Source of the DNA: Candidatus Hodarchaeota archaeon
GTDB taxonomy: Archaea > Asgardarchaeota > Heimdallarchaeia > Hodarchaeales > Hodarchaeaceae
DNA length: 64,000 bases
Assembly (NCBI GenBank): GCA_016840035.1
Contig: JAEOTC010000038.1
Span: forward strand, 64,001-128,000
Direction: 5' to 3'
Shown here: positions 15,005 through 33,350 of the stretch, in pieces
Layout: every line of letters starts with the position of its first letter
Position numbering within the stretch: position 1 is the first letter of the stretch
Made by a program: the position numbers and the translations under genes
The notes under the pieces: generated by a model
What the model saw: the letters and a program-made list of their open reading frames with translations, nothing else
What the model was told of the DNA's origin: nothing
Databases searched by the model: none

Positions 15005-15177
15005 AAATATTCACCTATTTCAGTTTGATGTGACTTTTTCTGAATAAAACCCTCGTAATTTCTTTATTAATGCTTTTTGGTGGAGGAGGTCGCTTTTCTG
15101 TAAAAGATTTTCTCTGCAACAATAAAGGATAATTTTTAAAAAGAATCTCTAGAATCAAGATCGTATATGAGAGTCCT

Positions 15178-16209
15178 TTGAGGGATACCATATTGAACTT
15201 AGACGAATTAATCGAACATGGTTTTATACCAACCATTGATCCTACTTCCCCGGATTCACTAGCTAGTCAAGGAGCCAATGCTTTTCTTGCTGAATATGGA
15301 GGAGTAGTTGAAGAAGTAGCACTTGTTTGTAAAAAAGAGGACGGTTTAGTTACTTTTCGAAGTGGAGCCGCTCCTAGTGACCGTAATTATGAAAACTTTT
15401 TCACAGACTTTACCGAATTAGCTAATGACCTTGGTATGAAAACCCATGCCTTTTCCTATGCTTTTGGTGATTCTTATCTTGGATCAGATCCAAATTATTC
15501 AATAGGTCGCTCTGATGGGACACTCATGACGACTTATGTTGATCCAAGTATGGAGGGATACTGGAAACATCTTAGTCAAATTTCACGTGAGGTTGCTCGT
15601 AAACCTATTAGGTCATTAGTTCTGCAAGAATTTCTATTTCCTAGACAGGAGTTTTCTTTTTCAAAGAGAGCTGTTCGAAAATTCGCAGAATTATCAGGTG
15701 TAAGCTTAGACACGAGTTACCTTGACATTCAAAAAGACCCTTCAATTCAACGAATGTTTGAAGATTGGCGTACTGATCTCATAAGCAGAGCATTTCGTCA
15801 AGCCGTAGAAAACGCAAGAAGCGAACGTCCAAGTTTAGACATAGGCATGGTCGTACCTGTCGATCCTGAAACAGAATGGCACAACGGATTTGTGCGTCAT
15901 TATGGGATAAATCTGGATAGAATTATCGAAATTTGTGGTTATGTTATTTATCACATTATGCCCTATTCCCCTATGTACCCTGAGCCAGGTTCCCCTAGTT
16001 GGGATACTCTAACGCAAGCCCTCCGTAGTTCCAATCTCTATGAAGAAAGTGGATATAAAAAAGCCCTTTTTGTCTGGGGCTTGGATTCAGAAGACGATGT
16101 CACGTGGTTAGAAACTTTAAAACAAGAAGTTAATGCTGATAAAATATTCGCACGTCTAGAATATCCGGAGAAATATTCTGTGAAGCGTGAAATACACCGT
16201 GGGGTATAA
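15178..16209 (+). CDS. TIM-barrel, glycoside-hydrolase-like (GHL10-type) protein
   Basis: YVDPS...YWKHL...LVLQEFLFP and WRTDLI resemble GHL10-like segments. Confidence 0.5.
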   Translation: MRDTILNLDELIEHGFIPTIDPTSPDSLASQGANAFLAEYGGVVEEVALVCKKEDGLVTFRSGAAPSDRNYENFFTDFTELANDLGMKTHAFSYAFGDSYLGSDPNYSIGRSDGTLMTTYVDPSMEGYWKHLSQISREVARKPIRSLVLQEFLFPRQEFSFSKRAVRKFAELSGVSLDTSYLDIQKDPSIQRMFEDWRTDLISRAFRQAVENARSERPSLDIGMVVPVDPETEWHNGFVRHYGINLDRIIEICGYVIYHIMPYSPMYPEPGSPSWDTLTQALRSSNLYEESGYKKALFVWGLDSEDDVTWLETLKQEVNADKIFARLEYPEKYSVKREIHRGV

Positions 16210-16216
16210 ATCCCGA

Positions 16217-16669
16217 CTATTTTTGGTTCCAATGCGCATAACGTCGAATATAATCGCCAACCTGATTTTGAAAGACCCTTCGATTTCGCTTCCATTGGCG
16301 CGCAGCAGTCGCATTTAGGGGGTCATCGGGATTGGGACTTGTTAGAAGGAATCGAATTGTCTCCACCACCTGCACTAAACTATAAGCTGGACTCCAATCC
16401 TTCCCAAGAATACCTACACACACTTTTTCTCTGAATATGTTCACATGCCAAATGGGAGTCTTAAACCTGACCTTTGGAGGTTCAAATGGATAACTACGAG
16501 GAATTTTTATTTCAATTACAAACACTCCCCCCTCATATAACCCAGATCCTAAAATTTCACCTTTCCAGAAAGTCAAATCGTTGTTAACTGATCTAAAAGT
16601 TGGTTGTTCCCGAGTCAACTCTTGAGCTTCGATTGCAAGTCGATCTAACCATTCTTCTTCAGTTAACAG
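16217..16669 (-). CDS. Ubiquitin-conjugating enzyme E2
   Basis: LYEGGVF, YPFEPPKVRF.TPIWHVNI, active-site VCVGIL, WSPA, PNPDDPLN. Frame is open upstream of the ORF call to a CTG at 16669 preceded by GGTGA. Confidence 0.93.
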   Translation of the reverse strand: MLTEEEWLDRLAIEAQELTREQPTFRSVNNDLTFWKGEILGSGLYEGGVFVIEIKIPRSYPFEPPKVRFKTPIWHVNIFREKVCVGILGKDWSPAYSLVQVVETIRFLLTSPNPDDPLNATAARQWKRNRRVFQNQVGDYIRRYAHWNQK

Positions 16670-17934: not shown

Positions 17935-20025
17935 GTGTCTTACTTGGAAGATTTAACTGATAAGAAATTTGTTGTGTGTCCCGCGTGGCCTTACGTGAAT
18001 GCTGTTCCTCATCTCGGAACAGTGTTACATTTACTTAGTGCGGATATATATGTTCGTTACTTAAGGCTTCGTGGAGCAAATGTAATCTCAGCTACTGGTT
18101 CAGACTGTCATGGAACACCAATAGAGGTGGCTGCGCTAGCCACTGGAATATCACCTGAAAAATTGGTAGAACAACATCATGCTCAAATTTTAGACTTACT
18201 GCGGAAATGGAATATTGATCTAAATTATTCAAAAACAGAGAGCTCGCACCATTATTCTTGGGTACAGGATTTCTATCATCGATGTTTCGAAAATGGATTT
18301 ATTTTCAGTAAAGAAATTGAACAATTGTACTGTGAGACAGACAAGCGTTTCCTACCCGACAGATTCGTTGAAGGAACCTGTCCTCACTGTGAAACCCCAG
18401 GAGCTCGTGGAGATCAATGTGATTCCCCTTCTTGTGGAAAACCATTAAGTCCTGTTGAGTTAATAAATCCTGTGTGTAAAATTTGTGGAAAACCACCTAT
18501 TACTAAAGTTACAACTCAATGGTATTATGATTTCAGTGCTTTCCAAGAAGAATTGACCGATTTTATTAACAAGAATGAAAATTTCCCTGATAATGCACGT
18601 AAATTCTCAAATCATATCCTTCAGGAAGGATTACAAGCCCGAACTTTAACACGTGATCTCGCATGGGGAATACCTGCTGGGCCCGCAATACCTGGAGCAG
18701 AAGGAAAATCGATCTATGTATGGTTGGAAGCAGTTTTAGGATATGTTTCAGCATCAGCAGAATTAGGATTACGTTTATACAAAGACCCTGATTTTTGGAA
18801 ACAATTTTGGCTTGAACAAGATACTCGGACTATTTTCTTTATTGGAAAAGACAATATTTTCTTTCATACACTTTTATTTCCAGCTCTTTTATTGGGAACT
18901 AAAGATACTTATGGTAAGCCATTTGTTCTTCCATACAATGTTAGTACAACCGAATTTCTTATTTTTGAGGAGGACAAATTTAGTAAATCCAGAGGTATAG
19001 GTGTCTGGATTGATGAAGCTGCCAAGCTCCTTCCTACTGATTATTGGAGGTATTATTTAGCAGCGACACGTCCAGAAATTAAAGATACGTCATTTACTTG
19101 GACTGAATTTGAGCAACGTGTAAACAATGATCTTAATGACGTATTAGGGAACTATATTCATCGTGTCTTTGTACTAATTCACAAGTACTTTGAAGGAAAA
19201 ATCCCAGAATGCCACAGGTTAGATACTACCGATAGAGAATTTGTTTCAGCCATAAATAATGTTCCTGAGGCTGTAGCAGACCATTTTGACAATTTTGAAT
19301 TTAAAAAAGCAGTCGCTGCAATCATTGATTTCGCTCGTGTCGCCAATGGATATCTAAGTACAAAAGAACCCTGGAAATTAATAAAATCTGATCCTACAAC
19401 AGTTGAAACTACATTATACCTTTGTGCTCAATCAGTTGCGACTTTAAGTGTTATTTTATCACCTATTATTCCCGACACTGTGAAAAAAATTTGGGAAATC
19501 CTGAAACAGGATGGAAGTGTCCACGACCAGCAATTAGAGGATGCTGGAAAGCTAAGATTAGATCCAGGATCAGTCATTTTAGAATCAAAACCCCTTTTTG
19601 CTAAGGTTGAAAGCGAAGAATTACAGAAGGAACTCAACGCTATTCATAAAACGGAGTCTAAAAAACCAAAAAAGGTGAAAAAATTGCCAGATAGAGAAAC
19701 AATTCCATTCAAAGATTTTGAGAGACTTGATATCCGAATAGGTACAATCATTAAAGCAGAAAAAGTTCCTAAAGCCAAGAATCTATTGAAACTAAGAGTA
19801 GATCTAGGCGAAGACATCGGAGAAAGACAGCTAGTCGCTGGACTTGCATCTTTTCGTGACCCTAAAGACTTAATTAACCAAAGAATCACGGTTATAGTTA
19901 ATCTGGAACCTACAACAATCAGAGGGGTCAGATCTGAAGGAATGCTCCTCGCTGCAGTCGAAGGTAAGGAATTAGGATTAATAGTCCCTGATAAAAATAT
20001 CGCTAATGGCACTAGAGTTAGCTAA
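17935..20025 (+). CDS. metG: Methionyl-tRNA synthetase with C-terminal tRNA-binding (EMAP/Trbp111) domain
   Basis: PYVNAVPHLG (HIGH-like), Zn knuckles, YVWLEA, GKDNIFFH, KFSKS, C-terminal GVRSEGM. Confidence 0.97.
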   Translation: MSYLEDLTDKKFVVCPAWPYVNAVPHLGTVLHLLSADIYVRYLRLRGANVISATGSDCHGTPIEVAALATGISPEKLVEQHHAQILDLLRKWNIDLNYSKTESSHHYSWVQDFYHRCFENGFIFSKEIEQLYCETDKRFLPDRFVEGTCPHCETPGARGDQCDSPSCGKPLSPVELINPVCKICGKPPITKVTTQWYYDFSAFQEELTDFINKNENFPDNARKFSNHILQEGLQARTLTRDLAWGIPAGPAIPGAEGKSIYVWLEAVLGYVSASAELGLRLYKDPDFWKQFWLEQDTRTIFFIGKDNIFFHTLLFPALLLGTKDTYGKPFVLPYNVSTTEFLIFEEDKFSKSRGIGVWIDEAAKLLPTDYWRYYLAATRPEIKDTSFTWTEFEQRVNNDLNDVLGNYIHRVFVLIHKYFEGKIPECHRLDTTDREFVSAINNVPEAVADHFDNFEFKKAVAAIIDFARVANGYLSTKEPWKLIKSDPTTVETTLYLCAQSVATLSVILSPIIPDTVKKIWEILKQDGSVHDQQLEDAGKLRLDPGSVILESKPLFAKVESEELQKELNAIHKTESKKPKKVKKLPDRETIPFKDFERLDIRIGTIIKAEKVPKAKNLLKLRVDLGEDIGERQLVAGLASFRDPKDLINQRITVIVNLEPTTIRGVRSEGMLLAAVEGKELGLIVPDKNIANGTRVS

Positions 20026-20070: not shown

Positions 20071-21204
20071 ATGCCTGAATGGGATTTAATTCTTTACACA
20101 GACGAAAAACAGAAAAATGTTCTGAATAAACTAAAACTTTCTGATAAAACTTTGTCCGCTGCGGGCCAACACGGAAAAGCCACTATTCTCGTGGATCATC
20201 AGGGGAAAGAATGGCTTTTGAAGATTTTCTCTAATATTCTAGATTTAGAGGTAAAAAAAGTATCCGACTTGGATATCGATATTCAAGATACTCCCGAACG
20301 GAGTCGTGACCGACTTCATTTATGGCGAGTATTAAATGAGATTACAGCATCACGACTTGGAAGACGTTTGTACCTAAATGTTCCCGAAACACGGATAATT
20401 TGTTCAGGTAAGGTTGCCAAATTTAAGTTAAAGTCCTCAACAGTCCTTAAAGAAGAAGATGTGGTAGTTTTAGATGAGGAAGAGGAAGAAGGGGAATCAG
20501 CAGAGGAATTTTATTCTTTTTCTGAGCGAGAAATTGGGTCTTTGAAAACTTCTGATCGGTTTGAAGAAATTCTAGCTCAAAAAAGTCCACGGAAAAATCC
20601 CACAGATATTTTAGCTCTTCTCCAAGAAAAAGTTCCAGATTCTCGGAATATTGATGAATACTTAGATGATCATAAGGCCGATTTAGATGCAGCCTTTGAA
20701 AATATTCAAAGCATAGATGATGCTTTTCTCCTTCTGCCTTTTGATATCTGGTTAAACGATCCTGATCGAAATGCTGGCAATTATTTAGTCCAGCTGAACG
20801 AGAAAAATGAAGCTTCACGAATTTGGGGGATAGATTATGAAATGTGGTCCTTTGGAAGCGATATTTGGATGGAAGAAGATAATGTAACCCAAGGAAGAAG
20901 TTATCTTACCGCAATAATCCATCCAAAAAGTCATATTTTCGATTCACGGGTCAATCAAACATTCTACAGAATAAGAATGCTTTCCGATGAGGAAATAGTT
21001 CAAATGACTAAAGCTCCTCAATTGGCTTGTAAGTTTTTCGAATTCCACATAAATACGGGCGATCTACACCCTGATGAGAGAGATAAATTAAAGCAAGTGG
21101 AGATTAACCTTGAAGATTTTCTGATTGAGTCCCGTCCACGTTCAGATAAATTAAGTGAAATCATCACACGTCAAATAGGTTTACCTAAAGACTTTAAGAC
21201 TTGA
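20071..21204 (+). CDS. HipA/PI3-PI4-kinase-like atypical kinase
   Basis: WLLK, LNEITASRLG, FDIWLNDPDRNAGNYLV catalytic loop, IDYE. Confidence 0.75.
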   Translation: MPEWDLILYTDEKQKNVLNKLKLSDKTLSAAGQHGKATILVDHQGKEWLLKIFSNILDLEVKKVSDLDIDIQDTPERSRDRLHLWRVLNEITASRLGRRLYLNVPETRIICSGKVAKFKLKSSTVLKEEDVVVLDEEEEEGESAEEFYSFSEREIGSLKTSDRFEEILAQKSPRKNPTDILALLQEKVPDSRNIDEYLDDHKADLDAAFENIQSIDDAFLLLPFDIWLNDPDRNAGNYLVQLNEKNEASRIWGIDYEMWSFGSDIWMEEDNVTQGRSYLTAIIHPKSHIFDSRVNQTFYRIRMLSDEEIVQMTKAPQLACKFFEFHINTGDLHPDERDKLKQVEINLEDFLIESRPRSDKLSEIITRQIGLPKDFKT

Positions 21205-21229: not shown

Positions 21230-22408
21230 TCATAAAACAGCACTCTCAAGCAAGTTCTTTGTCTTTAAGGCCATCATGTATTCTTCATCGGTAGGAATAA
21301 CCACAACTTCTATTTTGGATTCTGAAGATGAAATAATCACTTCTTCCTCTCCATTAGCTCCCTCGTTCTTTGAGATATCAATGGAAACATCTATACTATT
21401 CAGTCCCTTCACTATCAGTCTTCGAAAGTAAGAAGATCTCTCACCTATCCCACCTGTGAACACAATCGCGTCTAATCCTCCCAAAGCAATAAGGTACGCT
21501 CCAATATATTTCCGAATTCTGTAGGCAGCCATCTGAACAGCTAATTCTGCAGAGTGACTCCCCTTCAGAGCACTTTCCTGGATATCCCGCATATCTCTAA
21601 AATTCCCTGTAATTCCCAATAAGCCACTCCTTGAATTTAATTCTTGATCGATTTGATCAATGGTCAAATTTCCAGAACGCATCATAGCTAGTATTAAACC
21701 TGGGTCTATATCCCCCGATCGCGTGCCCATTATTAGGCCCTCTAAAGGAGTTAACCCCATACTTGTATCAATTGATTTTCCATCATATACAGCTGTTACT
21801 GAAGCTCCATTCCCAAGATGTAAGACGATTAGCTTTTTAGATTTCTTTAAACTAAGTAAACTTCTCGTTCTATTAGTCACATATTCAATAGATGTTCCAT
21901 GAAACCCATATCTCCGGAAAGAATTTTCCTCATACCACTTTCCTGAAATCGCATATCTGTATGCATATTCTGGAATCGTAGCATGAAAAGAAGTATCAAA
22001 AACTGCAATATGAGGAATAGCTGTTAATTTTTTTTTACTAGCTCGGATTCCAATTAGATTAGCGGGATTATGAAGTGGGGCAAGCTTTGATAGTTTTTCT
22101 ATCTGAGATTCAACCTCAGTATCAATGATCAATTCTCTTCGGAACTGTTCTCCCCCATGTACTACACGGTGAGCTACAGCTTTAATCGTATTAATGTCGA
22201 AGAATGTTAAGACATAATCTACAGCCTCTTCATGAGTAGCACAACTTATTACCTTGGTAACTTCCTCCTCCTTGCTTTTATGATATATCTTTGGTTCAGG
22301 GAGGCCTATTCGTTCCACTAATCCTTTAGCTATTAGCTGTTCTTTCTCCATGTTATAGATCGAATATTTTAGAGAGGAAGATCCTGAATTTATCGTTAAA
22401 ATTGTCAA
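21230..22408 (-). CDS. ackA: Acetate kinase
   Basis: INSGSSSLK, HRVVHGG, APLHNP, DTSFH, YGFHGTS, HLGNGAS, GTRSGDID, FTGGIGE. Confidence 0.97.
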   Translation of the reverse strand: MTILTINSGSSSLKYSIYNMEKEQLIAKGLVERIGLPEPKIYHKSKEEEVTKVISCATHEEAVDYVLTFFDINTIKAVAHRVVHGGEQFRRELIIDTEVESQIEKLSKLAPLHNPANLIGIRASKKKLTAIPHIAVFDTSFHATIPEYAYRYAISGKWYEENSFRRYGFHGTSIEYVTNRTRSLLSLKKSKKLIVLHLGNGASVTAVYDGKSIDTSMGLTPLEGLIMGTRSGDIDPGLILAMMRSGNLTIDQIDQELNSRSGLLGITGNFRDMRDIQESALKGSHSAELAVQMAAYRIRKYIGAYLIALGGLDAIVFTGGIGERSSYFRRLIVKGLNSIDVSIDISKNEGANGEEEVIISSSESKIEVVVIPTDEEYMMALKTKNLLESAVL

Positions 22409-22418
22409 AAAGACCCCT

Positions 22419-23867
22419 CTAGTAGGTACCTTTAGGTGTATCAGTCCCTTTTACAATAGCAATGGATGCTGATGCACCAATCCTAGTTGCTCCAGCGTTT
22501 ATCATCTGCTCTGCAATCTCGTGAGTTCTTATCCCTCCAGCTGCTTTTACACCCATTTCTGGACCTACTGTTTTTCTCATCAGAGCAATATCCTCAACTA
22601 ATGCTCCTGCAGTACTGAAACCTGTAGAAGTTTTAACAAAATCTGCTCCACTTAATTTTGTTAACAGACTACCTTTAACTATTTGTTCCTTGGTTAGTAG
22701 AGCAGTTTCAAGAATGACCTTTACTATGGCTTTCCCTGCAGCGGCATTTACTACCGCTTGGATATCCTCCCTAACTAAGTCATCGTTACCTGATTTCAAC
22801 GCTCCCACGTTAATAACCATGTCTACTTCATCTGCTCCATTTGCTACAGCATCTCGAGTTTCAATTGCCTTTACGGTGGGGGTAGTTGCTCCTAATGGAA
22901 ATCCAATTACAGTACATACTTTCACTGAGCTACTTTTCAAATATTTGGCTGCTTTTGCTACATTTGTAGGATTAATACATACTGATGCGAATTTATACGT
23001 TGCAGCTTCTTCACATAGTTGTTTAATCTCTTCTTCAGTTGCATCTGCACGGAGATTAGTATGGTCGATATACTGAGCAAGCTCCATATCATACCCATTT
23101 ATCCCTGTCTCAGAGGTAATTCTTGTTGCTCCTCCATTAACTAATGCTTTAACAGCAGCTTGAGACTTTCCATCTAATCCAATCTCTTTCCCTGAAGTCC
23201 CAATTGTGTATGATCGATCAGAGGTGGTTGGGATATAGGGAGAGGGTTCTTGATCAGTTATCTGATGAACATCAACAATTTTGATTCCCATAGTCCTTAA
23301 TTGATCAATAATTCCCTCAATACGTCTATTCATTGCAGGTGGGACTTGATCTTTCTCAATCTGACAACAGTAGATGGAATCATATGCTGCAATAACTGGT
23401 TTTCCATACATCAATCCAAATACTAGGGTTATAGTTCCCAAGGAATCTGCGTTCAAGGCCGCTACTTTAGCTGCAGTATTTAAGGATAATATAGGCACAT
23501 AAATAACATCTACCCGACTTAAAATATTGTCAAAAAACTGTTCAGAATAATCAGTAATAATTGTGGCTCCTTCAGAGACTTGTCTAATATCAGGTAAACC
23601 AATTATTTTTATTGCTGCACGAGTCATTACGATGTAAGTATTAGTATACGATTTTGAGATTTTTTCTATTTGGTGCATAACTTCATTAATCTCTTTATTC
23701 CCCCCACATAGTAGAATTAAAGCTGAGTTTCCTGAAGCTATTGTATAATTGATTTTCCGATTAGAAGTCTGTAAATTCGAATCGAACTGTTGTTTGGGAG
23801 CGAGATTATCTTGATCAAGCTTCCTCATCACTTCTTCAGTGATTTTCTGTATCATCTCATTACTCAT
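22419..23867 (-). CDS. deoC: Encapsulation peptide + flavoprotein-like domain fused to deoxyribose-phosphate aldolase
   Basis: C-terminal [49 protein letters not shown]; N-terminal [17 protein letters not shown] and [10 protein letters not shown]...DSL flavoprotein-like segment. Confidence 0.93.
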
Positions 23868-23887
23868 TTTCTTTACCCAAAATTATT

Positions 23888-24178
23888 TTAACTTAATTCA
23901 GTTTGTTTTCCATCCACTTCAATATAATCAATAACACCTACTATTAATGCATCCACAGCGGCTTTGTCATTATGCATTATACCTCGTATAGAGTTACCTT
24001 CTCGGATAACAAGGACACAATCCCCGATTCCAGATTTGGCTACATCTAGAGCGATGATAGAAGGCTCAGTGAAATTTCCTTTCAGATCTATCGGACGTAC
24101 CACAAGTATTTTTCCGTTTTCATGACTCTCAGTTTTAATTGGAGCAACTACATTGCCGATTACTTTAGCAAGAATCAT
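23888..24178 (-). CDS. BMC shell pentamer (BMC-P, EutN/CcmL family)
   Basis: MILAKVIGNVVA, IIALD...GIGDCVLV, VDALIVGVID. Confidence 0.95.
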   Translation of the reverse strand: MILAKVIGNVVAPIKTESHENGKILVVRPIDLKGNFTEPSIIALDVAKSGIGDCVLVIREGNSIRGIMHNDKAAVDALIVGVIDYIEVDGKQTELS

Positions 24179-24717
24179 TCTGTTTCACTTTCTACAATTT
24201 TTGGTTTAATTTCACGAATCTTTTTTGGTTTCTTCTTTCGAGTGGCCCTTTTTCTTGGTTTTGGTTTAACTACGGGCTTAATTTCTTCAACTACTTCGGG
24301 TTCCTCTACTTTCGTTTTCGGGATCGGTTCAAGTATCTCCTCTTTGGGAATTTCCCCGATTTCTTCATCTAGACTTATATCAACTTGTTTTAATGTTGCT
24401 GGAGGGGCCTTCTTCTTCTTTCTCTTCTGAGGTTTGCGTTTTGCACTTTTTGTAACATAATATTCCTCAATATATCCAACTATACACTCATCAATCGGAA
24501 CGAGTTCCTTTGGAAAGACAATAGCTGCCTCCTTTTTACTTACTACATACACAATATCTCCAGGTCCTGCAGTTTCAATGCCATCAGCGGCAACATATGG
24601 ACTTCCCAAGGGTTGAAGATTATCATCTAGACCTTGAACTACTAGAAGTCGGAGAGAATTTAATCCTGGATCTTTTGTTGAGGCAACAACATTCCCTATT
24701 ACTTTTCCAAGTTTCAT
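24175..24717 (-). CDS. BMC shell pentamer (BMC-P) with a long Lys/Arg/Glu-rich C-terminal tail
   Basis: MKLGKVIGNVVASTK, VAADG..AGPGDIV, PIDECIVGYIE, then about 90 aa of low complexity. Confidence 0.92.
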   Translation of the reverse strand: MKLGKVIGNVVASTKDPGLNSLRLLVVQGLDDNLQPLGSPYVAADGIETAGPGDIVYVVSKKEAAIVFPKELVPIDECIVGYIEEYYVTKSAKRKPQKRKKKKAPPATLKQVDISLDEEIGEIPKEEILEPIPKTKVEEPEVVEEIKPVVKPKPRKRATRKKKPKKIREIKPKIVESETE

Positions 24718-24721
24718 GTAA

Positions 24722-25180
24722 TCACGCTGATTTTAAATATTTCAATTCAATCTCGGAAATCTTATTTACTCTGGTCTCGTGTCTTCCACCACCGAAAGGA
24801 GTAGATAACCAAATCTTAACAATATTTTGCGCAATTCCTGGACCAATTACTCTCGCACCTAAAGTCAGGATGTTAGAATTATTGTGTTCACGAGCGGAAT
24901 TCGCAGTAAATTCATCCGTGCAAGGAGTTGCTCGAATTCCTTTAATTTTATTTGCTACAATTGCGCTAGCTACGCCTGTACCATCGATGAGAATCCCAAC
25001 GGATTCAACTGAGACTGCAACTGTTTGTGCTACTAATAATGCAATATCAGGATAATCCACAGGATCTGTAGAATAACAACCATAGTCCGCAACTTCGTAT
25101 CCTATTCCTTTCAGGAATTTTATCAGATCATTTTTGAGATGGAAACCACCATGATCCGATCCAATTATTATTTTCTTCAT
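24722..25180 (-). CDS. rpiB: Ribose-5-phosphate isomerase B family
   Basis: GSDHGG, DYPD, DGTGVAS, ANKIKGIRA, AREHNNSNIL, FGGGRH. Confidence 0.95.
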   Translation of the reverse strand: MKKIIIGSDHGGFHLKNDLIKFLKGIGYEVADYGCYSTDPVDYPDIALLVAQTVAVSVESVGILIDGTGVASAIVANKIKGIRATPCTDEFTANSAREHNNSNILTLGARVIGPGIAQNIVKIWLSTPFGGGRHETRVNKISEIELKYLKSA

Positions 25181-25205
25181 TTGACTTCAACTTGTAATAT
25201 AAAAC

Positions 25206-25757
25206 TCAAAGCAGAGTTTTTACTAGATCTGGATGAGGAGCAGGAATTACAGCAGTGGATAATACTAATCCTTCTCCTTTTACACGATTAACCCCAGCAT
25301 CTACAGCTGCTCGCACGGCACCCACTTCTCCTGTTAAAACAACAAACGCCTTTCCACCTATTGCGCGACTCATCCGAATTTCGATTAACTGTACCTGCGC
25401 ACTTTTAACAGCTTCGTCACCAACCATGATCGCTGTAGGAGCAGAATAAGTTTCTACTACTCCTATCGCGCCTACTTTTTCAACTCCAGATGTACCCGCA
25501 ATTGCTGGAAAAACCTCAGGATGTATATTGGGAATTACTGTGTAATTTACTAAGGTTTCACCTGCTATTTCACTTCCAGCGATTAGAGAGCTTTGAACAG
25601 CTGCAACTGCTCCTTGAATAATGATTAAATATTTTCCAGGACATACTGGTGAGGCGAATAATAGCTCGACTTCTGCTGTTTTCGCTATTGTATCGGCACT
25701 CAGTATACCTCGAGCAATTACATTTGTTTCTAGAACTCCTATAGCACGCATTTTCAT
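25206..25757 (-). CDS. BMC shell trimer (BMC-T, PduT-like)
   Basis: Two tandem BMC domains; PVCPGKY Cys motif as in PduT; C-terminal VIPAPHPDL. Confidence 0.93.
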   Translation of the reverse strand: MKMRAIGVLETNVIARGILSADTIAKTAEVELLFASPVCPGKYLIIIQGAVAAVQSSLIAGSEIAGETLVNYTVIPNIHPEVFPAIAGTSGVEKVGAIGVVETYSAPTAIMVGDEAVKSAQVQLIEIRMSRAIGGKAFVVLTGEVGAVRAAVDAGVNRVKGEGLVLSTAVIPAPHPDLVKTLL

Positions 25758-25827
25758 TTTCCTCTAAGATTGTAAACAAAGATGAAAGTAGTGAGCATTA
25801 GCTGCTCTCTTGCAGCTAATTGTTTAT

Positions 25828-26118
25828 TCAACCTTTCTTTGGGAGAATACTCTCAACTTCATCATGGGGTCGAGGAATTACATGAGCTGAGGTTAGTTCA
25901 CCAACTTTTCGTGCAGCGACTGCACCAGCTTCAACAGAAGCTTTCACAGCACCAACGTCACCTCTAACCATTACAGTAACAAAACCACCGCCAATAACTT
26001 CGCGTCCCATTAAATGAACGTTCGCTGCTTTCACCATAGCGTCAGCTGCTTCAATAGATGCAACTAACCCTTTTGTTTCTATCAATCCAAGTGCTTCTTT
26101 AGCCATTTTTTTCACCAA
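25828..26118 (-). CDS. BMC shell hexamer (BMC-H, PduA/EutM-like)
   Basis: [50 protein letters not shown]. Confidence 0.98.
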
Positions 26119-26130
26119 TTTTTTTGTCTT

Positions 26131-27456
26131 TTATTTTGTCTTTTCAATGACAATTTCTTGTCCAATTTTGCGAATAATTCCGCTAATACTAGCATGAATT
26201 ACTGCACCTAGTGACCCATCTGGAATCTTTCCTATGAGTGCACCTTTTTCAACCGAATCTCCTACTTTTACCGTTGGAATTGCAGGATCTCCGATATGTT
26301 GTTTGAGAGGGATGGAAACTTTTCGAATCTGTAATTTTCGTTTTCGTATTGGACATTCATGATTATAATTCAATAGATCCAATCGTGAAATTAATCTTTT
26401 TACAGGTAATTTTCGATATTCCCTCTCAGGATGAATCGATAATACTTTTCGATTATGAGTATTCTTTAAACCCTCTACCCTCAACTGTCCCTTTACTTCT
26501 GTCATCATTTTACATGGATCCAACCCCATAGGACATCCATAATATGTACAAGCTCCACATTCCACACAAAGGAATGTTCCCGTCATATAATCGGGTCTTT
26601 CTGGAGCACCCCATGCTATTCCTCGCATAACTTTGTCAGGATGTAATTCATGGCCCAATAAGAATCTAGGACAGACATCTGTACATAATTGACATCTTAT
26701 GCATGCTGCTTTGGTAACAATTACTTTGGATGAGATCCGTTCAGTTTTCATTCTGATTACAAAATGATTCTCTGGCAAAACAATTATTCCAGAAGTTAAT
26801 TTGGTAATAGGTTTTTTAGGGGCAATTACTGTACCCATCATGGGTCCATTTATCAATACTTGATAATCATCGATTGTAGCTCCCCCTGCAGCTTTTATTG
26901 CATCCTTTATTGAGGTACCAATTGGAAATTCCATCGTAGAGGGGTTTTTAACAGCGCCTGTTATGGTTACATAACGAGATACTATGGGATTTCCTTCAGC
27001 GGCCTCAGCTAGATTGATCAATGTATAGACATTATTTACTACGACTCCAATGTCAAGAGGGAGTCCACTTTCCGGAATTATTTTACCTAAAGCTTCATAA
27101 ACAAGAACATGTTCATCTCCAGCAGGATAAACATCATCGAGAAGGAATATCTCGATTCTGGAATCAGCTTTGACCACTTGTTTAAGCTTCTTAATTGCAG
27201 TTTTATACTTCCTTTTTACAGCGATTATTCCTCGCTTCGCCCCAGTGGCTTTCATTCCTAGCTGTAATCCAGTTATTAATTTTCCTGGACAGGTTGTCAT
27301 TAATTGCTGATCCACTCTTAATAATGGTTCACATTCAGCTGCATTAACTATAAACGTATCTACTTTCGCAGAAAGCTTCACATGTGTAGGAAAACCAGCT
27401 CCACCAGCTCCAACTATTCCAGAATTTCGTGCCATGTCTGCTATTTCGGAGCTCAC
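26131..27456 (-). CDS. pduS: PduS/RnfC-like flavin, SLBB, 4Fe-4S oxidoreductase
   Basis: GIVGAGGAGFPTHVK, NAAECEPLL, YPAGDE, GPMMG, CIRCQLCTDVCP, CVECGAC, LKQHIG, HASISG; adjacent to PduT-like gene. Confidence 0.9.
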   Translation of the reverse strand: MSSEIADMARNSGIVGAGGAGFPTHVKLSAKVDTFIVNAAECEPLLRVDQQLMTTCPGKLITGLQLGMKATGAKRGIIAVKRKYKTAIKKLKQVVKADSRIEIFLLDDVYPAGDEHVLVYEALGKIIPESGLPLDIGVVVNNVYTLINLAEAAEGNPIVSRYVTITGAVKNPSTMEFPIGTSIKDAIKAAGGATIDDYQVLINGPMMGTVIAPKKPITKLTSGIIVLPENHFVIRMKTERISSKVIVTKAACIRCQLCTDVCPRFLLGHELHPDKVMRGIAWGAPERPDYMTGTFLCVECGACTYYGCPMGLDPCKMMTEVKGQLRVEGLKNTHNRKVLSIHPEREYRKLPVKRLISRLDLLNYNHECPIRKRKLQIRKVSIPLKQHIGDPAIPTVKVGDSVEKGALIGKIPDGSLGAVIHASISGIIRKIGQEIVIEKTK

Positions 27457-27483
27457 TTATATTTGCCTCGTTTTCTTTTGATT

Positions 27484-28911
27484 TCAAATGATTCTAAAAG
27501 CATCCACTAGAGTACAACGTCTTTGACGTGTAAAAGTTCTTGCTGAGGTAAGTCCTTCTCCCGTTGGTCCTGCAATTGTCATAGTAGTATAGCCTTCCCC
27601 TCCGAATCCAATCCCAGCAAAGGAGGGGGCATTTTTGACAAAAATTGTAGTTTCGATATCTTTTGCCACAAGACTCATATTTCCAACTGAATCGCTCCAC
27701 ATCATTGCTGTGTGTTTGAATCCATGTTCAGCCTTCTTTGCTTTTTGCAAAGCTTCTTCTATTGATTTCACTCTAACTATTGGTAAGACTGGCATCAACA
27801 TTTCAGATATTACGAAGGGATGTTCATCATCAGGCACCTCTGCAATTATCAACCGGATATTGTCACTAACCTGCACTCCGATTCCCTCAAGAAGTATTTT
27901 GGCATCTTTTCCGATGAAGTCCCTGTTTACTATGGGAAATCTCCCTTTCTTTCCTTTGAAAACGAGATTAGTCAGTTGGACTATCTGATCTCCAACAATT
28001 TCATATGCACCATAATTCTTCATTTCTGCTTTTAATCGATCAGTGATGACATCAAATGCGAATACTTCTTTTTCTACAATACATACAATATTATTATCAA
28101 AACTTGCGCCTTCTACTATTCCTCGGGCTGCTTTTTGAATATTTGCAGTATCATCAACTATTACAGGAGGATTTCCTGGTCCTGCACATATCGCTTTTTT
28201 TCCAGATTGCATTGCAGCTTTTACTACTGCACTTCCTCCTGTTACAACTAGACACCGAATCTTTTTGTGTGTCATTAAAGTCTGGGCTGACTCAATCGTA
28301 GGGGATATGGTTGATGTAAGAACATTTTCTGGTCCCCCCGCTTCGAGAATTGCCCTATTCAATAATCTCACAGCTTCATTACTTGCTCTTTTAGCTGATG
28401 GATGAGGATTAAATACTACGCTATTTCCTGCCGTAACCATTGATATTCCATTGTTAATTATCGTTGCTGTTGGGTTTGTTGAAGGAGTAATTGACCCAAT
28501 TACGCCATAAGGAGCCATTTCAACAAGTGTTAATCCTTTATCACCCGTCCATGTATTTGGTACCAGATCTTCTAAGCCTGGAGTTTTTCGAGCACAGAGC
28601 AAATTCTTTGCTACTTTATCCTCTAATCTCCCTAGACCAGTTTCTTGGATTGCTAATTCAGCTAGATATCGTGCATGTTTAATAGCGGAGTCACGCATCG
28701 ATTGTATGATTTCTTTTCTTCTCTCCAAAGATAAATCCATTAGTGCTACTTGACTCTTTTCCGCAGCCTCTATTGCCTGTTCAATGTCCTGGAATATTCC
28801 TCCACCTGCACTAGTGGGAATATTCTCCAATCCTGAATAGACTTGATAAGCTCTTATTTTCTGTACAACAGAATTGACGATTTTTGCAATTTGTTGTTCG
28901 TCATATGACAT
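27484..28911 (-). CDS. CoA-acylating aldehyde dehydrogenase (EutE/PduP family) with N-terminal encapsulation peptide
   Basis: PYGVIGSITPSTNP, VTGGSAVV, AGPGNPPVIVD, FDNNIVCIVEK, EMLMP, GEGLTSARTFTRQRRC. Confidence 0.95.
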   Translation of the reverse strand: MSYDEQQIAKIVNSVVQKIRAYQVYSGLENIPTSAGGGIFQDIEQAIEAAEKSQVALMDLSLERRKEIIQSMRDSAIKHARYLAELAIQETGLGRLEDKVAKNLLCARKTPGLEDLVPNTWTGDKGLTLVEMAPYGVIGSITPSTNPTATIINNGISMVTAGNSVVFNPHPSAKRASNEAVRLLNRAILEAGGPENVLTSTISPTIESAQTLMTHKKIRCLVVTGGSAVVKAAMQSGKKAICAGPGNPPVIVDDTANIQKAARGIVEGASFDNNIVCIVEKEVFAFDVITDRLKAEMKNYGAYEIVGDQIVQLTNLVFKGKKGRFPIVNRDFIGKDAKILLEGIGVQVSDNIRLIIAEVPDDEHPFVISEMLMPVLPIVRVKSIEEALQKAKKAEHGFKHTAMMWSDSVGNMSLVAKDIETTIFVKNAPSFAGIGFGGEGYTTMTIAGPTGEGLTSARTFTRQRRCTLVDAFRII

Positions 28912-28958
28912 TTATCTACCTTCGTTTCGTTTTTTATTTTCTTACATAAAGGGAAATC

Positions 28959-29249
28959 TTATTTTCGATAAGTTTCTTTTCCATTTATTTGGATAAAATC
29001 TATGATAGCTTGGATCGTTGCATCTGTGGGTTTATCCTTGGTCATTGCAGTTAAACGAGATGAACTTCCAGTAACAACTAGTACTAATTCGTTCTCTCCC
29101 GCACCAACTGCATCAATTGCCACGAAAGGAGAACTCTCTGGTTTTAAATCAGTCATATCCACTGGTTGTACTATCATTAATTTAAAGCCTTTAATACTGG
29201 CATCCTTCTCGGTACTTACTACATTTCCTATTACTTTACACACTTTCAT
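28959..29249 (-). CDS. BMC shell pentamer (BMC-P, EutN/CcmL family)
   Basis: KVIGNVVSTEK, VAIDAVGAGENELVLVVTGSSSR, PTDATIQAIID. Confidence 0.96.
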   Translation of the reverse strand: MKVCKVIGNVVSTEKDASIKGFKLMIVQPVDMTDLKPESSPFVAIDAVGAGENELVLVVTGSSSRLTAMTKDKPTDATIQAIIDFIQINGKETYRK

Positions 29250-29260
29250 GTAAATATCTC

Positions 29261-29980
29261 CTAAATCTTAATTATCTTTATATCAAGCATTTTAGCTTTT
29301 TCTTGTGCTAAGGGGGTAATAATAGTTGAATGGGGTACAAATATTTCGTGAATTTTACCTTTTAATCCCTCTAAATAATCCTCGGTAATTAAATCTGGTA
29401 TAGCTGGAGTATGTTTGACAAATTGATCTTCTAAGTCCTCTATGTCAACAAGTCTGAATCCCATTTCGATTAAAGTAGATAAATATCGACTCAGATTATT
29501 AGTTAACATACCCGATGGGCCATAGTCAAATGTTAAATCTGTGGGAGGAAAAGGTGTTACAATATAAACAGGAATTTTAAATAACAACCCTTGAAGTAAT
29601 AAATTAACAGTTGAATTGGAATCTTCAAATTTTGTTATTTTTTTTGCTATTTCAAAACTAAAGGCACCAAACATAATTGATTTAAGATTACTGTAAAAAT
29701 TTAGGCAAAAATCTCCAAAAGGATTAACTAAAACGTCCATTGTGGGAATTGAACCTGCTTTTGTGGTTATTTTCTTAGCCTGGTCAATTTCATCCTTTGT
29801 CCAGATCAGGACTTGCATTTTTTGTTCGGCTAATCTAATTAGGGATTGTAATAATTCATCCAATCCTTGTCCCATATGGGTTAAGACACCTAGGACATCG
29901 TAAGGACCTAGGTTATGCTCATTCTTGAGAACACTCTTAACTTGCTGTGTAACGAGTAATTCGAGCTCTTTCTCATTCAT
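29261..29980 (-). CDS. BMC accessory flavoprotein-like protein with N-terminal encapsulation peptide
   Basis: MNEKELELLVTQQVKSVL; C-terminal LITEDYL...IITPLAQEKAKMLDIKI module seen in BMC accessory proteins. Confidence 0.7.
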   Translation of the reverse strand: MNEKELELLVTQQVKSVLKNEHNLGPYDVLGVLTHMGQGLDELLQSLIRLAEQKMQVLIWTKDEIDQAKKITTKAGSIPTMDVLVNPFGDFCLNFYSNLKSIMFGAFSFEIAKKITKFEDSNSTVNLLLQGLLFKIPVYIVTPFPPTDLTFDYGPSGMLTNNLSRYLSTLIEMGFRLVDIEDLEDQFVKHTPAIPDLITEDYLEGLKGKIHEIFVPHSTIITPLAQEKAKMLDIKIIKI

Positions 29981-29995
29981 GATGCTTCACTCTTG

Positions 29996-30316
29996 TTAAT
30001 CTCTTCCAGGATCCTCTTCTACGCTTGAAGTTCGACTTCTGACTTTCTCAATAAGATCAACCGTCACCTGATCAGGTCTTGGAATTACATTAGTTAATAA
30101 ACCACAGGAGATCTGACGTAGTTGGACTTTTGCTGCTTCAATTGCTTCACGGACAGCAGCGACCTCTCCCTCAATTATCACAATAACCAATCCCCCTGAA
30201 ACACGTTTTAAGGAAATAAGGCTCACATCTGCGGTTTTCATGGCCGTATCTGTTGCCACAATGGCTCCTATCCGACCGCATGTCTCCATAAATCCTAAAG
30301 CTTTCATTAAAATCAC
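29996..30316 (-). CDS. Second, divergent BMC shell hexamer (BMC-H)
   Basis: KALGFMETCG, ATDTAMKTADV, IEGEVAAVREAIEAA, NVIPRP; overlaps the upstream stop by 4 nt (alternative ATG at 30307). Confidence 0.93.
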   Translation of the reverse strand: MILMKALGFMETCGRIGAIVATDTAMKTADVSLISLKRVSGGLVIVIIEGEVAAVREAIEAAKVQLRQISCGLLTNVIPRPDQVTVDLIEKVRSRTSSVEEDPGRD

Positions 30317-32169
30317 CTGAACGGAGAATAAGATCCTTCTTTTAAATCCAAAATCAGACTCCCCATTTCTCCCGTATTCAGTGCAAGAGCATTACCCTCG
30401 TCAAGGTCTAAATGGAGCTCCAAATTATAATCCGGGTGAATTCTAACCATGATCTCGTCTAGGATTCCAGCTCGGGTTCCAGGAAATTGAACAGCAACTA
30501 TCTGTCGATCTGACACATTTAACCTTTGCGCATCTTTTGGTGACATGTGGATGTGTCGCGCTGCGAAAATGACTCCCTTATCCAAAGTGATAGCTCCCTT
30601 TGGACCAATTATGTGTACTCCTGGAGTATCTCTTAAATCTCCTGATTGACGTGTTGGTGGATTAATACCTAATACATAACCGTCACTCCGAGATATTTCA
30701 ACTTGAGTTTCGTCTCTGAAGGGGCCAAGAATACGAACTCCATAGATGGCTCTTTTGGGGCCGATTAGATCAACAACTTCTTTGCATGCATACTGTTTTG
30801 GTTGAGTTAAGGAATTAAGGGGAGTTAAAACTGCTTTTTCTCCAAATAATTTGTGAAAATCGGCTTTTGAAAGGTGGATGTGACGTGCAGATAAGGATAC
30901 TGGAATTAAATGATCATCGAATACTTTAGTCAGCTCATCGGTGACTAATCTCTTCACTAGTTCTCCAGCTGCTGACTGTGTACTTCGTTGTGAAATGGGT
31001 TGATATTCACAACCTAATGGACCGCAATATCTTCCTACATATTCAGCAGAGGGTCTATAAATCACTGGTTTGACGGTAGGAGTTTCGGGATACTTCTCTT
31101 CTAAAACATGAGCAGTCCAACCAGCGACTCTCGATGTAGTAAAAATCGGTGTAAAGAGTTCAACTGGGATATTTAAGCTTGTATATACCGTGGCACCATA
31201 TAGATCCACATTAGGATATATTCCACGATTTTTTCGCTTCTTAAATTCTTTTTGAGTAATCTCAACCAACTTATTGGTAGTTTCATACATCCATTGAGCT
31301 AATCCACCCTTCCTTCTCACAAGATCTGCAGCCATTTCCTTCAATATTTTGGCTCTCGGATCTGTAGTTTTATATACGGCATGTCCCATCCCCATAATTC
31401 GTTTACCTTCATTAAATCGATTTTTGACCCATTCCTCAGCACTTGAGACTTTCTTAATCTCCATTAAGCTTTCATAAACTAAATGATTAGCTCCCCCATG
31501 ATACATCCCTGATAAAGAACCAATGGCACCAGAAATAGATGCATATAGATCCGCTCCAGTAGATGCAATGACCCGAGCTGTGAATGTGGAAGCATTGAAA
31601 GAGTGTTCTGCATGTAGAATTAGTGTGACATCAAAGATCCTTGCTTCTTCATCAGTTGGGATACTCCCATGAAGCATGTAGAGGAAATTTGATGCATATT
31701 TTAGATTCTTATTTGGAGCGATTGGTTCTTTATTGCTACGAATTCTCTCCCATGCGGTCACAATAATAGGAAGCCGAGCTATTATTCTAATTGCAATATT
31801 TCGATCGGATTCTCTTTTTCCAGTCCCGATCTCGTTGTTGTATCCTGCTAGTAAAGCTAATGAAGATTGGAGTACACTCATAGAAGGGGTATTCTTTGAG
31901 GTTTTCTGTAAATGTGAGATTAATTGTGGTGGTAAATCCTGATTTGAAATTATTGCGTTCTTAAAACTCTCCAATTGATCAAAAGAGGGGAGGTTTCCGT
32001 ACAGAAGTAAGTAAACTACCTCTTCGTAGGTTGAATTTCTTGCTAACTCATTAATGTCATAACCTCGGATAAATAGATTGCCTTTTTCACCTTCTATAAG
32101 ACAAATATTTGTATCCGCAACCTCAACACCGCGAAGTCCTGTTGATTTGTGGCTATGTTCTTCAATCAT
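30313..32169 (-). CDS. Citrate synthase fused to PduL phosphotransacylase
   Basis: aa ~10-380: GLRGV, LHAEHSFNASTF, HGGAN, GMGHAVYKTTDPR, PNVD, SRVAGW. aa ~422-605: SARHIHLS, LTQPKQYA, RILGPFRDETQVEIS, RQSGDL..TPG, ARHIHMSP, ELHLDLDEGNA. Confidence 0.93.
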   Translation of the reverse strand: MIEEHSHKSTGLRGVEVADTNICLIEGEKGNLFIRGYDINELARNSTYEEVVYLLLYGNLPSFDQLESFKNAIISNQDLPPQLISHLQKTSKNTPSMSVLQSSLALLAGYNNEIGTGKRESDRNIAIRIIARLPIIVTAWERIRSNKEPIAPNKNLKYASNFLYMLHGSIPTDEEARIFDVTLILHAEHSFNASTFTARVIASTGADLYASISGAIGSLSGMYHGGANHLVYESLMEIKKVSSAEEWVKNRFNEGKRIMGMGHAVYKTTDPRAKILKEMAADLVRRKGGLAQWMYETTNKLVEITQKEFKKRKNRGIYPNVDLYGATVYTSLNIPVELFTPIFTTSRVAGWTAHVLEEKYPETPTVKPVIYRPSAEYVGRYCGPLGCEYQPISQRSTQSAAGELVKRLVTDELTKVFDDHLIPVSLSARHIHLSKADFHKLFGEKAVLTPLNSLTQPKQYACKEVVDLIGPKRAIYGVRILGPFRDETQVEISRSDGYVLGINPPTRQSGDLRDTPGVHIIGPKGAITLDKGVIFAARHIHMSPKDAQRLNVSDRQIVAVQFPGTRAGILDEIMVRIHPDYNLELHLDLDEGNALALNTGEMGSLILDLKEGSYSPFR

Positions 32170-32402
32170 TGGTAGGCCTTTTTATTTCAAGTAAGATTTC
32201 GGTATCAAAAGGTGAAACTTCCTTCCCTTAAAAATCGCTCTTTCAAACGTCTGACGATTCAAAATGGTAATTTCTTCCCAAACTTACTGAATGTTAATCT
32301 GGTTAATATGAGAGAGTTATTTTGTATTATAGATAACCAATAACACTATATAATAGATAGTAGCTTTTATTAGAAGACTATTCTCTTTGGAGGTTATTAT
32401 CT

Positions 32403-33350
32403 GTGATGATTAGAGGCTTTTCAAAATATACTTCTTTTACTTGTTCGGATTGTCACATGAAATGCTGTGCGACCGAGTTCAATCTTCCAATAAGTGGGTT
32501 AGAAAAAGAATATCTTACCCAAAATTTTCCAGAATATCGACATTACTTACAATCTACAGAAAAAGGATCTTTTATACTCCGAGGAAACTCATGTCCTTTC
32601 TTGACAACCGCTGGATTGTGCCAACTGCATGCTAAATCAATAAAACCTCTTACATGTAGAATTTACCCCTTAATTTTCTGGCGATTCAACCAAAAAGATA
32701 CTTTAGTTTCTATACATCCCTGTCGGGGACATGGATTTCAATGGTATTCTAGAAAGAAATCATCTGTTGGTAATAGCTTTATCAATCAGCTATTATCTGC
32801 TAGTAAGGAGTATTATGACACTTATTGGGGGGAAGAAATCGATGCAAACAATCCTTATGAGGGAATTTCTCAAGCAAGAATTAAAGACCAACTCGAAGCT
32901 TATCGTCATACTTCAAAGGATAAATTGCTAGTAACCAACTTGAAAAACCCTGATTTATCCTCACGAATTCCATTTTCTCAGGCGTTTCAGGAGAAGGCTT
33001 TAGAGATCATCGATGGAGGGAGCATTGGAAATTTTTTAAATTCTGTTTTCAACTGGTTAATTTGGAGTCCAGTAGGCTTGCACTTATCAATAAAAAATGC
33101 TCAAACGCTTTTTACTACCGCTGCATTATGGTTAATTGACCAAACTGAGGTAAATTCGAACATACTTTCCTCTATTCCTCCTGAATCACAGTATTATGAG
33201 CAAACATCCTCGTTCTATGCGAGTTCCTTAACTCCTTCTTTCTGGGAAAATATCCTCGCTCAGAAAACCCTCCCCACTCTAAGTACCTTTGCAGAGAAAG
33301 TCCGCTTAATTCTCATGGGAGAACTTCCACAAGATGATTTACTTAAATGA
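32403..33350 (+). CDS. YkgJ-family Cys-cluster (CxxCxxCC) protein
   Basis: FTCSDCHMKCC, CPFL...CQLH...KPLTCRIYP. Confidence 0.8.
   Translation: MMIRGFSKYTSFTCSDCHMKCCATEFNLPISGLEKEYLTQNFPEYRHYLQSTEKGSFILRGNSCPFLTTAGLCQLHAKSIKPLTCRIYPLIFWRFNQKDTLVSIHPCRGHGFQWYSRKKSSVGNSFINQLLSASKEYYDTYWGEEIDANNPYEGISQARIKDQLEAYRHTSKDKLLVTNLKNPDLSSRIPFSQAFQEKALEIIDGGSIGNFLNSVFNWLIWSPVGLHLSIKNAQTLFTTAALWLIDQTEVNSNILSSIPPESQYYEQTSSFYASSLTPSFWENILAQKTLPTLSTFAEKVRLILMGELPQDDLLK

Follow-up and report, generated by a model that had tools for sequence, protein, structure and literature searches.

The sugar-phosphate-utilising (SPU) metabolosomes of bacteria are defined by deoxyribose-phosphate aldolase (DERA) as signature enzyme, accompanied by an aldehyde dehydrogenase (AldDH), a triplet of vertex proteins (BMC-P) of the bacterial microcompartment (BMC) shell, the tandem shell protein BMC-T^s, the isomerase RPI, the phosphotransacylase PTAC and PduS (Dwyer, Sutter & Kerfeld 2024, PMC11585597). 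The DERA of a bacterial SPU6 system is the only one of an SPU locus whose activity has been demonstrated, and RpiB of SPU loci forms a complex with DERA (Dwyer et al. 2024, PMC11585597). More recently "archaeal microcompartments" (AMCs) were reported in 66 of 111 Hodarchaeales genomes (Du et al. 2025, bioRxiv 2025.11.08.687404; PMC12747264). The present analysis concerns a 64-kb stretch of DNA (64,000 nucleotides, hereafter the window, to which all coordinates refer unless stated otherwise) from the contig of a Candidatus Hodarchaeota archaeon, and in particular the operon at its positions 21230-32169. This operon very probably encodes an AMC of type I, i.e. an SPU metabolosome of bacterial ancestry which is native to a Hodarchaeales chromosome and maintained there by selection.

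According to Du et al. (bioRxiv 2025.11.08.687404), the type I AMC has exactly the parts list of the window operon, and a Myxococcota origin was inferred for it. Shells were assembled by these authors in vitro and in E. coli from an orthologous operon (as followed by TEM and SEC), recruitment of cargo dependent on encapsulation peptides and binding of nucleic acid by the BMC-P2 tail were demonstrated with orthologous proteins, and the orthologous locus was reported to be transcribed in the cultured strain SC1. In type I AMCs BMC-P2 carries a disordered region of 36-137 residues rich in Lys and Arg, and citrate synthase (CS) and PTAC are fused in some lineages. The window operon matches this description in its shell (two BMC-H, one BMC-T^s with a CPGK motif and three BMC-P, with a K/R-rich disordered region in P2) as well as in its enzymes (a flavoprotein domain fused to DERA, AldDH, a CS-PTAC fusion, the protein named DUF, the metabolosome NADH dehydrogenase MNdh, RPI and acetate kinase). 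It agrees also in lacking a third BMC-H, TPI and a class II aldolase. The host order is Hodarchaeales in both cases, and no difference between the operons was found. Since the same system was published by Du et al. in November 2025, the finding is already known, and the statement of a first-pass annotation of this DNA that BMC organelles are described only as bacterial is outdated. The main text of Du et al. makes no mention of the chromosomal site, of the alternative DERA-AOR cassette described below, of recombination, of DERA-only scars or of a separate origin of the CS module.

The operon is formed by 13 intact open reading frames in one unbroken co-oriented row on the minus strand, with intergenic gaps of -4 to 70 nt. 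The contig containing the window is 142.8 kb long and belongs to an assembly of 4.3 Mb with 87% completeness. Gene families were assigned by Pfam and NCBIfam profile searches (Table 1). The shell set consists of two BMC-H, one tandem BMC-T and three BMC-P proteins (PF00936/PF03319), in full agreement with the three shell classes listed by the first-pass annotation. The tightly packed, intact and co-oriented row which it described stands as well, with the correction that it counted 12 genes and missed the 239-aa gene at 29261-29980. Its enzymes (DeoC, RpiB, AldDH, PduL, AckA and PduS) were all recovered by the profiles; it had overlooked the citrate synthase half of one fusion protein and the flavoprotein half of another. 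The operon proteins are 81-95% identical to those of the related genome G002 (G and L numbers are our identifiers for genomes and loci), except for AckA (71%), DUF (75%) and P3 (79%). The AckA of the G002 contig bears the NCBI name 'Heimdallarchaeota archaeon B3_Heim', and G002 is presumably the genome that was used for the published experiments. All 13 genes show dN/dS of 0.00-0.11 in comparison with genomes G006 and G002, which is as low as for the neighbouring gene of methionyl-tRNA synthetase (MetRS), and their dS falls in the range of the flanking genes. The operon genes are thus under purifying selection.

The first protein of the operon comprises citrate synthase (aa 1-~395) and PduL/PTAC (aa 423-597), joined by an amphipathic helix in the linker at ~aa 400-417 (ELVKRLVTDELTKVF). 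The citrate synthase motifs HAEH (at residue 186), GHAVY (262) and NVDLY (320) are all present, the PduL half has the RHIH motif twice (429 and 538), and the fusion is found in about 35 Hodarchaeales protein clusters. The catalytic cysteine of AldDH is conserved, with C277 invariant in alignment A1. The Flav-DERA protein is composed of a flavoprotein-like domain (aa ~1-255) and DERA (aa 262-472) with the Schiff-base lysine motif KTSTG at 412. Apart from those of the operon, no full-length citrate synthase, AckA or DeoC was found in the 87%-complete assembly, where the remaining PF00285 matches represent fragments of citryl-CoA-lyase or ACL-like type. Within the genus, citrate synthases that stand alone (378-384 aa) have a patchy distribution.

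MNdh contains an FMN/NADH domain, an SLBB domain, two [4Fe-4S] clusters and a C-terminal RnfC barrel domain. A permutation between RnfC and MNdh has been mentioned (Sutter et al. 2024). Circular permutation as a peculiarity of the present MNdh was considered and dropped, as its bacterial BMC homologues appear colinear (>50% coverage); full-length alignment (440/441) was obtained only with a Hodarchaeales orthologue. Among the shell proteins, BMC-H2 is the best-conserved product of the operon (88-100% identical within the genus and 77% identical to its Myxococcota counterpart) and is probably the major shell hexamer. BMC-T^s has the CPGK iron-sulfur ligand motif at residue 39. The tail of BMC-P2 is 95 aa long, disordered and basic-acidic-basic, with 31% Lys+Arg, a net charge of +12 and pI 9.9. 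DUF has no Pfam match even at E 10, and its C-terminus is an eut_hyp-like tail. It is paralogous to the N-terminal domain of Flav-DERA (26% identity, E 8e-6). Its AlphaFold2 model (pLDDT 78) has a UbiX-type flavoprotein as best PDB match (TM-score ~0.55-0.60), the matches to this fold being modest overall (0.43-0.60); its structure-atlas neighbours carry PF02441/PF15953, and only seven representatives of its relatives are found among 1.8e9 proteins. Amphipathic helices at the N-termini of Flav-DERA, AldDH and DUF and in the linker of CS-PduL look like encapsulation peptides, judging by their sequences.

The gene set suggests the following course of events. BMC-H1 and BMC-H2 hexamers together with the BMC-T trimer would tile the shell, the vertices being capped by pentamers of the three BMC-P proteins, as Du et al. 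showed for the orthologous operon. Flav-DERA, AldDH, DUF and CS-PduL would be placed inside by their putative encapsulation helices, in the manner of the recruitment which these authors observed with orthologues. Deoxyribose 5-phosphate (dR5P) would enter the shell to be cleaved by DERA to glyceraldehyde-3-phosphate and acetaldehyde, and the trapped acetaldehyde would be converted by AldDH to acetyl-CoA and NADH, as expected from the enzyme families. CoA may be recycled by two routes: PduL would yield acetyl-phosphate, from which AckA, probably outside the shell, would make acetate and ATP; citrate synthase would yield citrate. MNdh is predicted to regenerate NAD+, with electrons leaving to the cytosol via the Fe-S centre of the CPGK-bearing BMC-T, by analogy with the MNdh/BMC-T electron outlet (Sutter et al. 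2024). The basic P2 tail would project from the vertices and bind nucleic acid, which Du et al. showed for an orthologue. The dR5P-cleaving compartment leading to acetyl-CoA, acetyl-phosphate, acetate and ATP that was proposed in the first-pass annotation is thus consistent with the genes present; the second CoA route via citrate synthase had escaped it.

Comparison with bacterial SPU loci shows DERA, AldDH, the BMC-P triplet, BMC-T^s, RPI beside the shell genes, PTAC and a PduS homologue in the window. This corresponds to the published definition (PMC11585597), so that the SPU assignment made in the first-pass annotation stands. BMC-T^dp is missing, as in subtypes SPU1/4/7 (Sutter et al. 2021; PMC11585597). 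The window locus differs from the bacterial ones by its archaeal host, the fusion of citrate synthase with PTAC, the basic tail of BMC-P2 and the presence of AckA in the operon. With the Pdu and Eut systems of enterobacteria the operon shares aldehyde trapping, an acylating AldDH, a PduL-type phosphotransacylase and a PduS/PduT-type electron outlet. It differs from them in having DERA instead of a B12-dependent diol dehydratase or ethanolamine ammonia-lyase and in the absence of an alcohol dehydrogenase for NAD+ recycling.

The closest bacterial counterparts are Myxococcota-like SPU loci (L024, as well as L023 and L025), with identities of 58-62% for AldDH, 68% for DERA, 77% for H2, 51-54% for T, 43-46% for MNdh and 53% for PTAC. 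They contain the Flav-DERA fusion with its N-terminal encapsulation-type helix. They differ in GC content (0.48-0.68) and in having no citrate synthase or AckA within 2-10 kb on each side of AldDH. For comparison of ancestry, 80 related loci were listed, one of them from Hodarchaeota, and further Hodarchaeales relatives were taken from genome searches. In the AldDH tree (85 sequences) the Hodarchaeales form a clade (support 100, starred) beside the Myxococcota-like clade (99, starred) and a sequence of Thermoplasmatota JASLWR01, with a joint support of 91; all of these are nested in a bacterial set (95, starred), and the operon enzyme groups with the AldDHs of BMC loci. In the DERA tree the AMC clade (99, starred) is grouped with Myxococcota and JASLWR01 at 93. 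The AldDH and DeoC trees, as proposed in the first-pass annotation, place the archaeal clade beside Myxococcota-like sequences; they point to bacterial ancestry and, with their unstarred joint supports, agree with the probable Myxococcota origin inferred by Du et al. The Myxococcota locus L024 shares H1, H2, T, P1, P3, MNdh, PTAC, RPI and also the fusion of Flav with DERA, which is therefore older than the transfer. L025 (contig CAZDDH010000323.1, genome G026), which harbors a Myxococcota-like SPU locus, is labelled 'uncultured Rickettsiales' in a genome of 9.6 Mb with GC 0.68, and this label is probably wrong. L023, which falls in the same clade as L025, is labelled Thermodesulfobacteriota (8 Mb).

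Of the 80 related loci listed, the one from Hodarchaeota alone contains citrate synthase. The operon enzyme is 37-40% identical to stand-alone citrate synthases of Hodarchaeales and 41-43% to those of Myxococcota-like genomes (the best ones, in G025 and G026, reach 42-43%; none was found in the genome of L024). Its nearest named relatives in the CS tree are labelled Bathyarchaeia and Nanoarchaeia. As these are the only two named non-Hodarchaeales neighbours in the tree, an archaeal origin of the CS module is a lead and not a result. The nearest AckA beyond Hodarchaeales (~50% identity) belongs to Bacillota-type bacteria. In genome G014, where no shell genes were found, an operon-type citrate synthase stands alone (L133:9252-10442; C1 ~303.3-304.4 kb); it is 59% identical to the present one, is placed by the CS tree within the AMC clade and contains one in-frame TAG.

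The genes around the operon are archaeal in character. The left flank (825-16618) is a dense cluster of eukaryote-signature genes including two Snf7, EAP30/Vps25-like, Vps28 and UEV-E2 proteins, a ThiF-type E1, an E2, an Arf-like GTPase, Yip1 and a 404-aa Ras/Roc GTPase extended at its N-terminus. On the right lie the genes of L44e, a GPN-loop GTPase, an L28e-like ribosomal protein (30.6 bits, under the Pfam cut-off of 33.2) and an intron-bearing tRNA, the latter two being represented by 42423-42839 and 50253-50394. The 142-nt match of the tRNA implies an intron of ~70 nt; ARAGORN made no call there. From the flanks given in the first-pass annotation, the ESCRT-ubiquitin genes on the left and L44e and the tRNA on the right were found again, while S30e was not confirmed. 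The nearest orthologues of AldDH, CS-PduL and AckA (60-94% identity) are named Candidatus Hodarchaeales, Hodarchaeota or Heimdallarchaeota; the archaeal host which that annotation had assumed is thereby upheld, and the assignment to Hodarchaeales is based on these names and on the ESCRT, ubiquitin and GTPase genes of the contig.

Bacterial type of the shell and core enzymes, whose nearest non-archaeal relatives come from bacterial metagenome-assembled genomes (MAGs), together with a tetranucleotide distance of the operon (0.126) slightly over the window average (0.07-0.10), might be taken as a trace of an assembly or binning artefact, with a Myxococcota-like BMC contig wrongly linked to Asgard DNA. 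The first-pass annotation had likewise asked for the junctions, the composition and near-identity to a bacterial genome to be checked, and for syntenic loci to be sought. The operon was found between MetRS-o377 and CxxC-ZnR96-L44e in G010 (a closed genome in a single contig of 4.94 Mb), G008 (a single contig of 3.16 Mb) and the MAGs G006 and G002, with protein identities of 45-100%. The arrangement of MetRS-o377, operon and CxxC-ZnR96 is repeated in the independent metagenome contigs L160 and L156. One Logan contig (19954-22457) bridges the left junction, and contigs at 32142-33150 cover the right one at even depth. These contigs come from three marine-sediment runs of one study, which may be those of the source samples; none of them is longer than 5.5 kb or spans the whole operon, and as depth is one figure per contig, they serve only to tell that the junctions are bridged or covered. 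The composition of the operon (GC 0.389, GC3 0.257) is that of the flanking genes (GC 0.377, GC3 0.286) and not that of the nearest bacterial loci (GC 0.48-0.68), its dS equals that of the flanks, and the nearest bacterial AldDH is just 62% identical. Chimerism and recent contamination are excluded by these data and the locus is native; the artefact explanation is hardly credible.

Another explanation is that the operon, acquired long ago by transfer, is decaying and builds no working compartment any more in this organism. Repeated loss and reduction in the genus (the operon is present in nine of 24 genomes), the DERA-only loci of G001, L159 and L161, the truncated copy in G009 and the absence of AckA from the G010 operon would agree with it. 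The retention of all 13 reading frames with their catalytic and cluster-binding motifs, dN/dS values as low as that of MetRS, the lack of other full-length CS, AckA and DeoC genes in the assembly and the transcription of the orthologous locus in strain SC1 (Du et al.) speak against decay, and make it highly improbable. It is also conceivable that the compartment is real and serves mainly a substrate other than DNA-derived dR5P, such as another sugar phosphate processed via RpiB or acetaldehyde from another source, or that it mainly makes citrate. In favor of this, RpiB has no assigned function in SPU loci, though it complexes with DERA, two flavoprotein-fold domains without an assigned role are conserved, and among the 80 loci only the archaeal version has the citrate synthase fusion. 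However, DERA is the sole aldehyde-producing enzyme at the locus and the universal signature enzyme of SPU systems, and the alternative cassette pairs DERA with an aldehyde oxidoreductase, again tying it to aldehyde disposal, so that a different main substrate is quite unlikely. Several points have to be set against the preferred assignment to a native SPU metabolosome of dR5P. The enzyme activities, the substrate and the shell in cells of this organism are predictions from its genes; no role is assigned to RpiB, DUF and the flavoprotein domain; and citrate synthase acting inside the shell would need entry of oxaloacetate and exit of citrate. The T protein is PduT-like and not PduT, because its TIGR02526 (PduT equivalog) score is under the cut-off. 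The sister position of Myxococcota has SH-aLRT supports of 91 and 93, below the star threshold, with few Myxococcota sequences in the trees.

The chromosomal site of the operon was followed in a survey of 24 species genomes of the order. BMC domains and the operon occur in nine of them, all belonging to one genus. In the operon-free genomes G007, G018, G015, G003, G016 and G019 and in the metagenome contig L158 the order of genes is o377-CxxC-AOR-DERA-ZnR96, the CxxCxxCC-domain gene directly abutting o377. The AOR of this cassette is a tungsten-type aldehyde:ferredoxin oxidoreductase of 590 aa (PF02730+PF01314), and its DERA is a stand-alone protein of 289 aa with a C-terminal extension of ~58 aa. 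AOR orthologues (at least 69% identity) were found in ten of the 24 genomes, all ten without shell genes. In none of the nine operon-bearing genomes, the closed G010 included, was an AOR orthologue found (best match at most 46% identity). Five genomes carry neither cassette and none carries both. Operon and AOR states are interleaved in the MetRS tree, with at least four changes forced by well-supported branches. For the mutual exclusion there are only four independent species pairs (sign test, p 0.125); the lower value of Fisher's test (p 0.002) ignores kinship.

The sister genomes G002 (operon) and G007 (AOR-DERA), with 96% identical MetRS and 95% identical flanking DNA, allow the exchange to be viewed closely. 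Their DNA ceases to be similar within the last part of o377 and is similar again immediately beyond the CxxC gene, the CxxC proteins being only 43% identical. These break points indicate replacement of the whole segment and not deletion. The AOR of G007 is 71-72% identical to all other AORs, in parallel with the MetRS distances, and both haplotypes therefore seem to be old. Taken together, the observations tip slightly in favor of the operon and the stand-alone DERA with tungsten-type AOR being long-lived, mutually exclusive haplotypes, exchanged by homologous replacement of the whole segment and not by simple loss. In the alternative haplotype the DERA step would proceed in the cytosol and acetaldehyde would be oxidized to acetate with ferredoxin, no shell being involved. 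Linkage of DERA and AOR at this site provides independent support for DERA-derived acetaldehyde as the intermediate of the compartment. The polymorphism of the locus may be a modest new lead.

Reduced forms of the operon occur at the same site. In G001 (L150:1387-2088), L159 and L161 only an operon-type DERA domain (74-77% identity) is present between o377 and CxxC, without the flavoprotein domain, shell genes and AckA, and these loci are apparently deletion scars of the operon. In G009 (a single contig of 1.39 Mb; L134, C1:684-704 kb, and L151) the operon is split and truncated: CS-PduL, H1 and 41 aa of DUF lie beside the CxxC gene, and a partial Flav-DERA lies beside o377, ~320 kb away. In G022 and G023 (L145 and L146), which represent the order's other family, a DERA standing alone lies 3-4 kb from MetRS and shares 54-58% identity with that of the operon. 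As these genomes have neither the operon nor an AOR orthologue, DERA near MetRS may be the older arrangement. A spacer of 233 bp (32170-32402) separates the first operon gene of the window from the CxxCxxCC-domain gene. The latter is fast-evolving, with 36-59% identity within the genus (70-96% for MetRS) and dN/dS of 0.13-0.15, the highest of the neighbourhood.

Table 1. Genes of the operon, its anchors and the alternative cassette (window coordinates, except for the last row).
Feature	Coordinates	Strand	Profile matches and remarks
Citrate synthase-PduL fusion, 618 aa, operon gene 1	30313..32169	-	PF00285 1.1e-122 + PF06130 1.9e-70
BMC-H1 shell hexamer protein, 106 aa	29996..30316	-	PF00936 4e-21; 4-nt overlap with upstream gene
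DUF, flavoprotein-fold protein, 239 aa	29261..29980	-	TIGR02536 C-terminus 3e-4
BMC-P1 vertex pentamer protein, 96 aa	28959..29249	-	PF03319 2.3e-29
CoA-acylating AldDH, 475 aa	27484..28911	-	PF00171; NF011927 660 bits (cut-off 403)
PduS-like metabolosome NADH dehydrogenase (MNdh), 441 aa	26131..27456	-	PF01512, PF10531, PF13534, PF13375; TIGR01945 272 bits
BMC-H2, 96 aa	25828..26118	-	PF00936 8.1e-29
BMC-T^s, PduT-like tandem BMC protein, 183 aa	25206..25757	-	Two PF00936 stretches; TIGR02526 119 bits (cut-off 250)
RpiB-type sugar-phosphate isomerase, 152 aa	24722..25180	-	PF02502 2.8e-52; TIGR01120 165 bits (cut-off 139)
BMC-P2 (aa 1-85) with 95-aa tail	24175..24717	-	PF03319 2.4e-20
BMC-P3, 96 aa	23888..24178	-	PF03319 4.9e-20
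Flavoprotein-like domain-DERA fusion, 482 aa	22419..23867	-	TIGR00126 287 bits (cut-off 117); weak PF02441 0.0057
Acetate kinase AckA, 392 aa, TTG start, last gene of row	21230..22408	-	PF00871 3.3e-133
Left anchor o377, conserved hypothetical protein, following MetRS (17935-20025)	20071..21204	+	Adjoins operon or alternative cassette in every genome examined
Right anchor, CxxCxxCC-domain protein, 315 aa	32403..33350	+	PF03692; divergent from operon
DERA-AOR cassette	L131:4883-8564 (G007); also L147, L148, L149, L154, L132, L158		

That an archaeal order often regarded as closest to eukaryotes has a protein-bounded metabolic organelle is an important fact, known from the literature since November 2025; the window contributes one further well-assembled member of type I AMCs. 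The present analysis adds two things: it confirms independently that the locus belongs to this chromosome and is kept by purifying selection, and it finds in operon-free relatives a DERA-AOR pair at the same site, which serves as an internal genetic control for the proposed function in acetaldehyde formation from deoxyribose phosphate. For the two cultured strains it can be predicted that the site which bears the operon in SC1 is occupied by the DERA-AOR cassette in HC1. If the two haplotypes are real, they would offer a natural, repeated comparison of encapsulated, NAD/CoA-linked, ATP-yielding acetaldehyde oxidation with a free, ferredoxin-linked one. The compartment would then be a swappable accessory and not a stably inherited ancestral organelle, and the idea that it was "priming" eukaryogenesis would be tempered.

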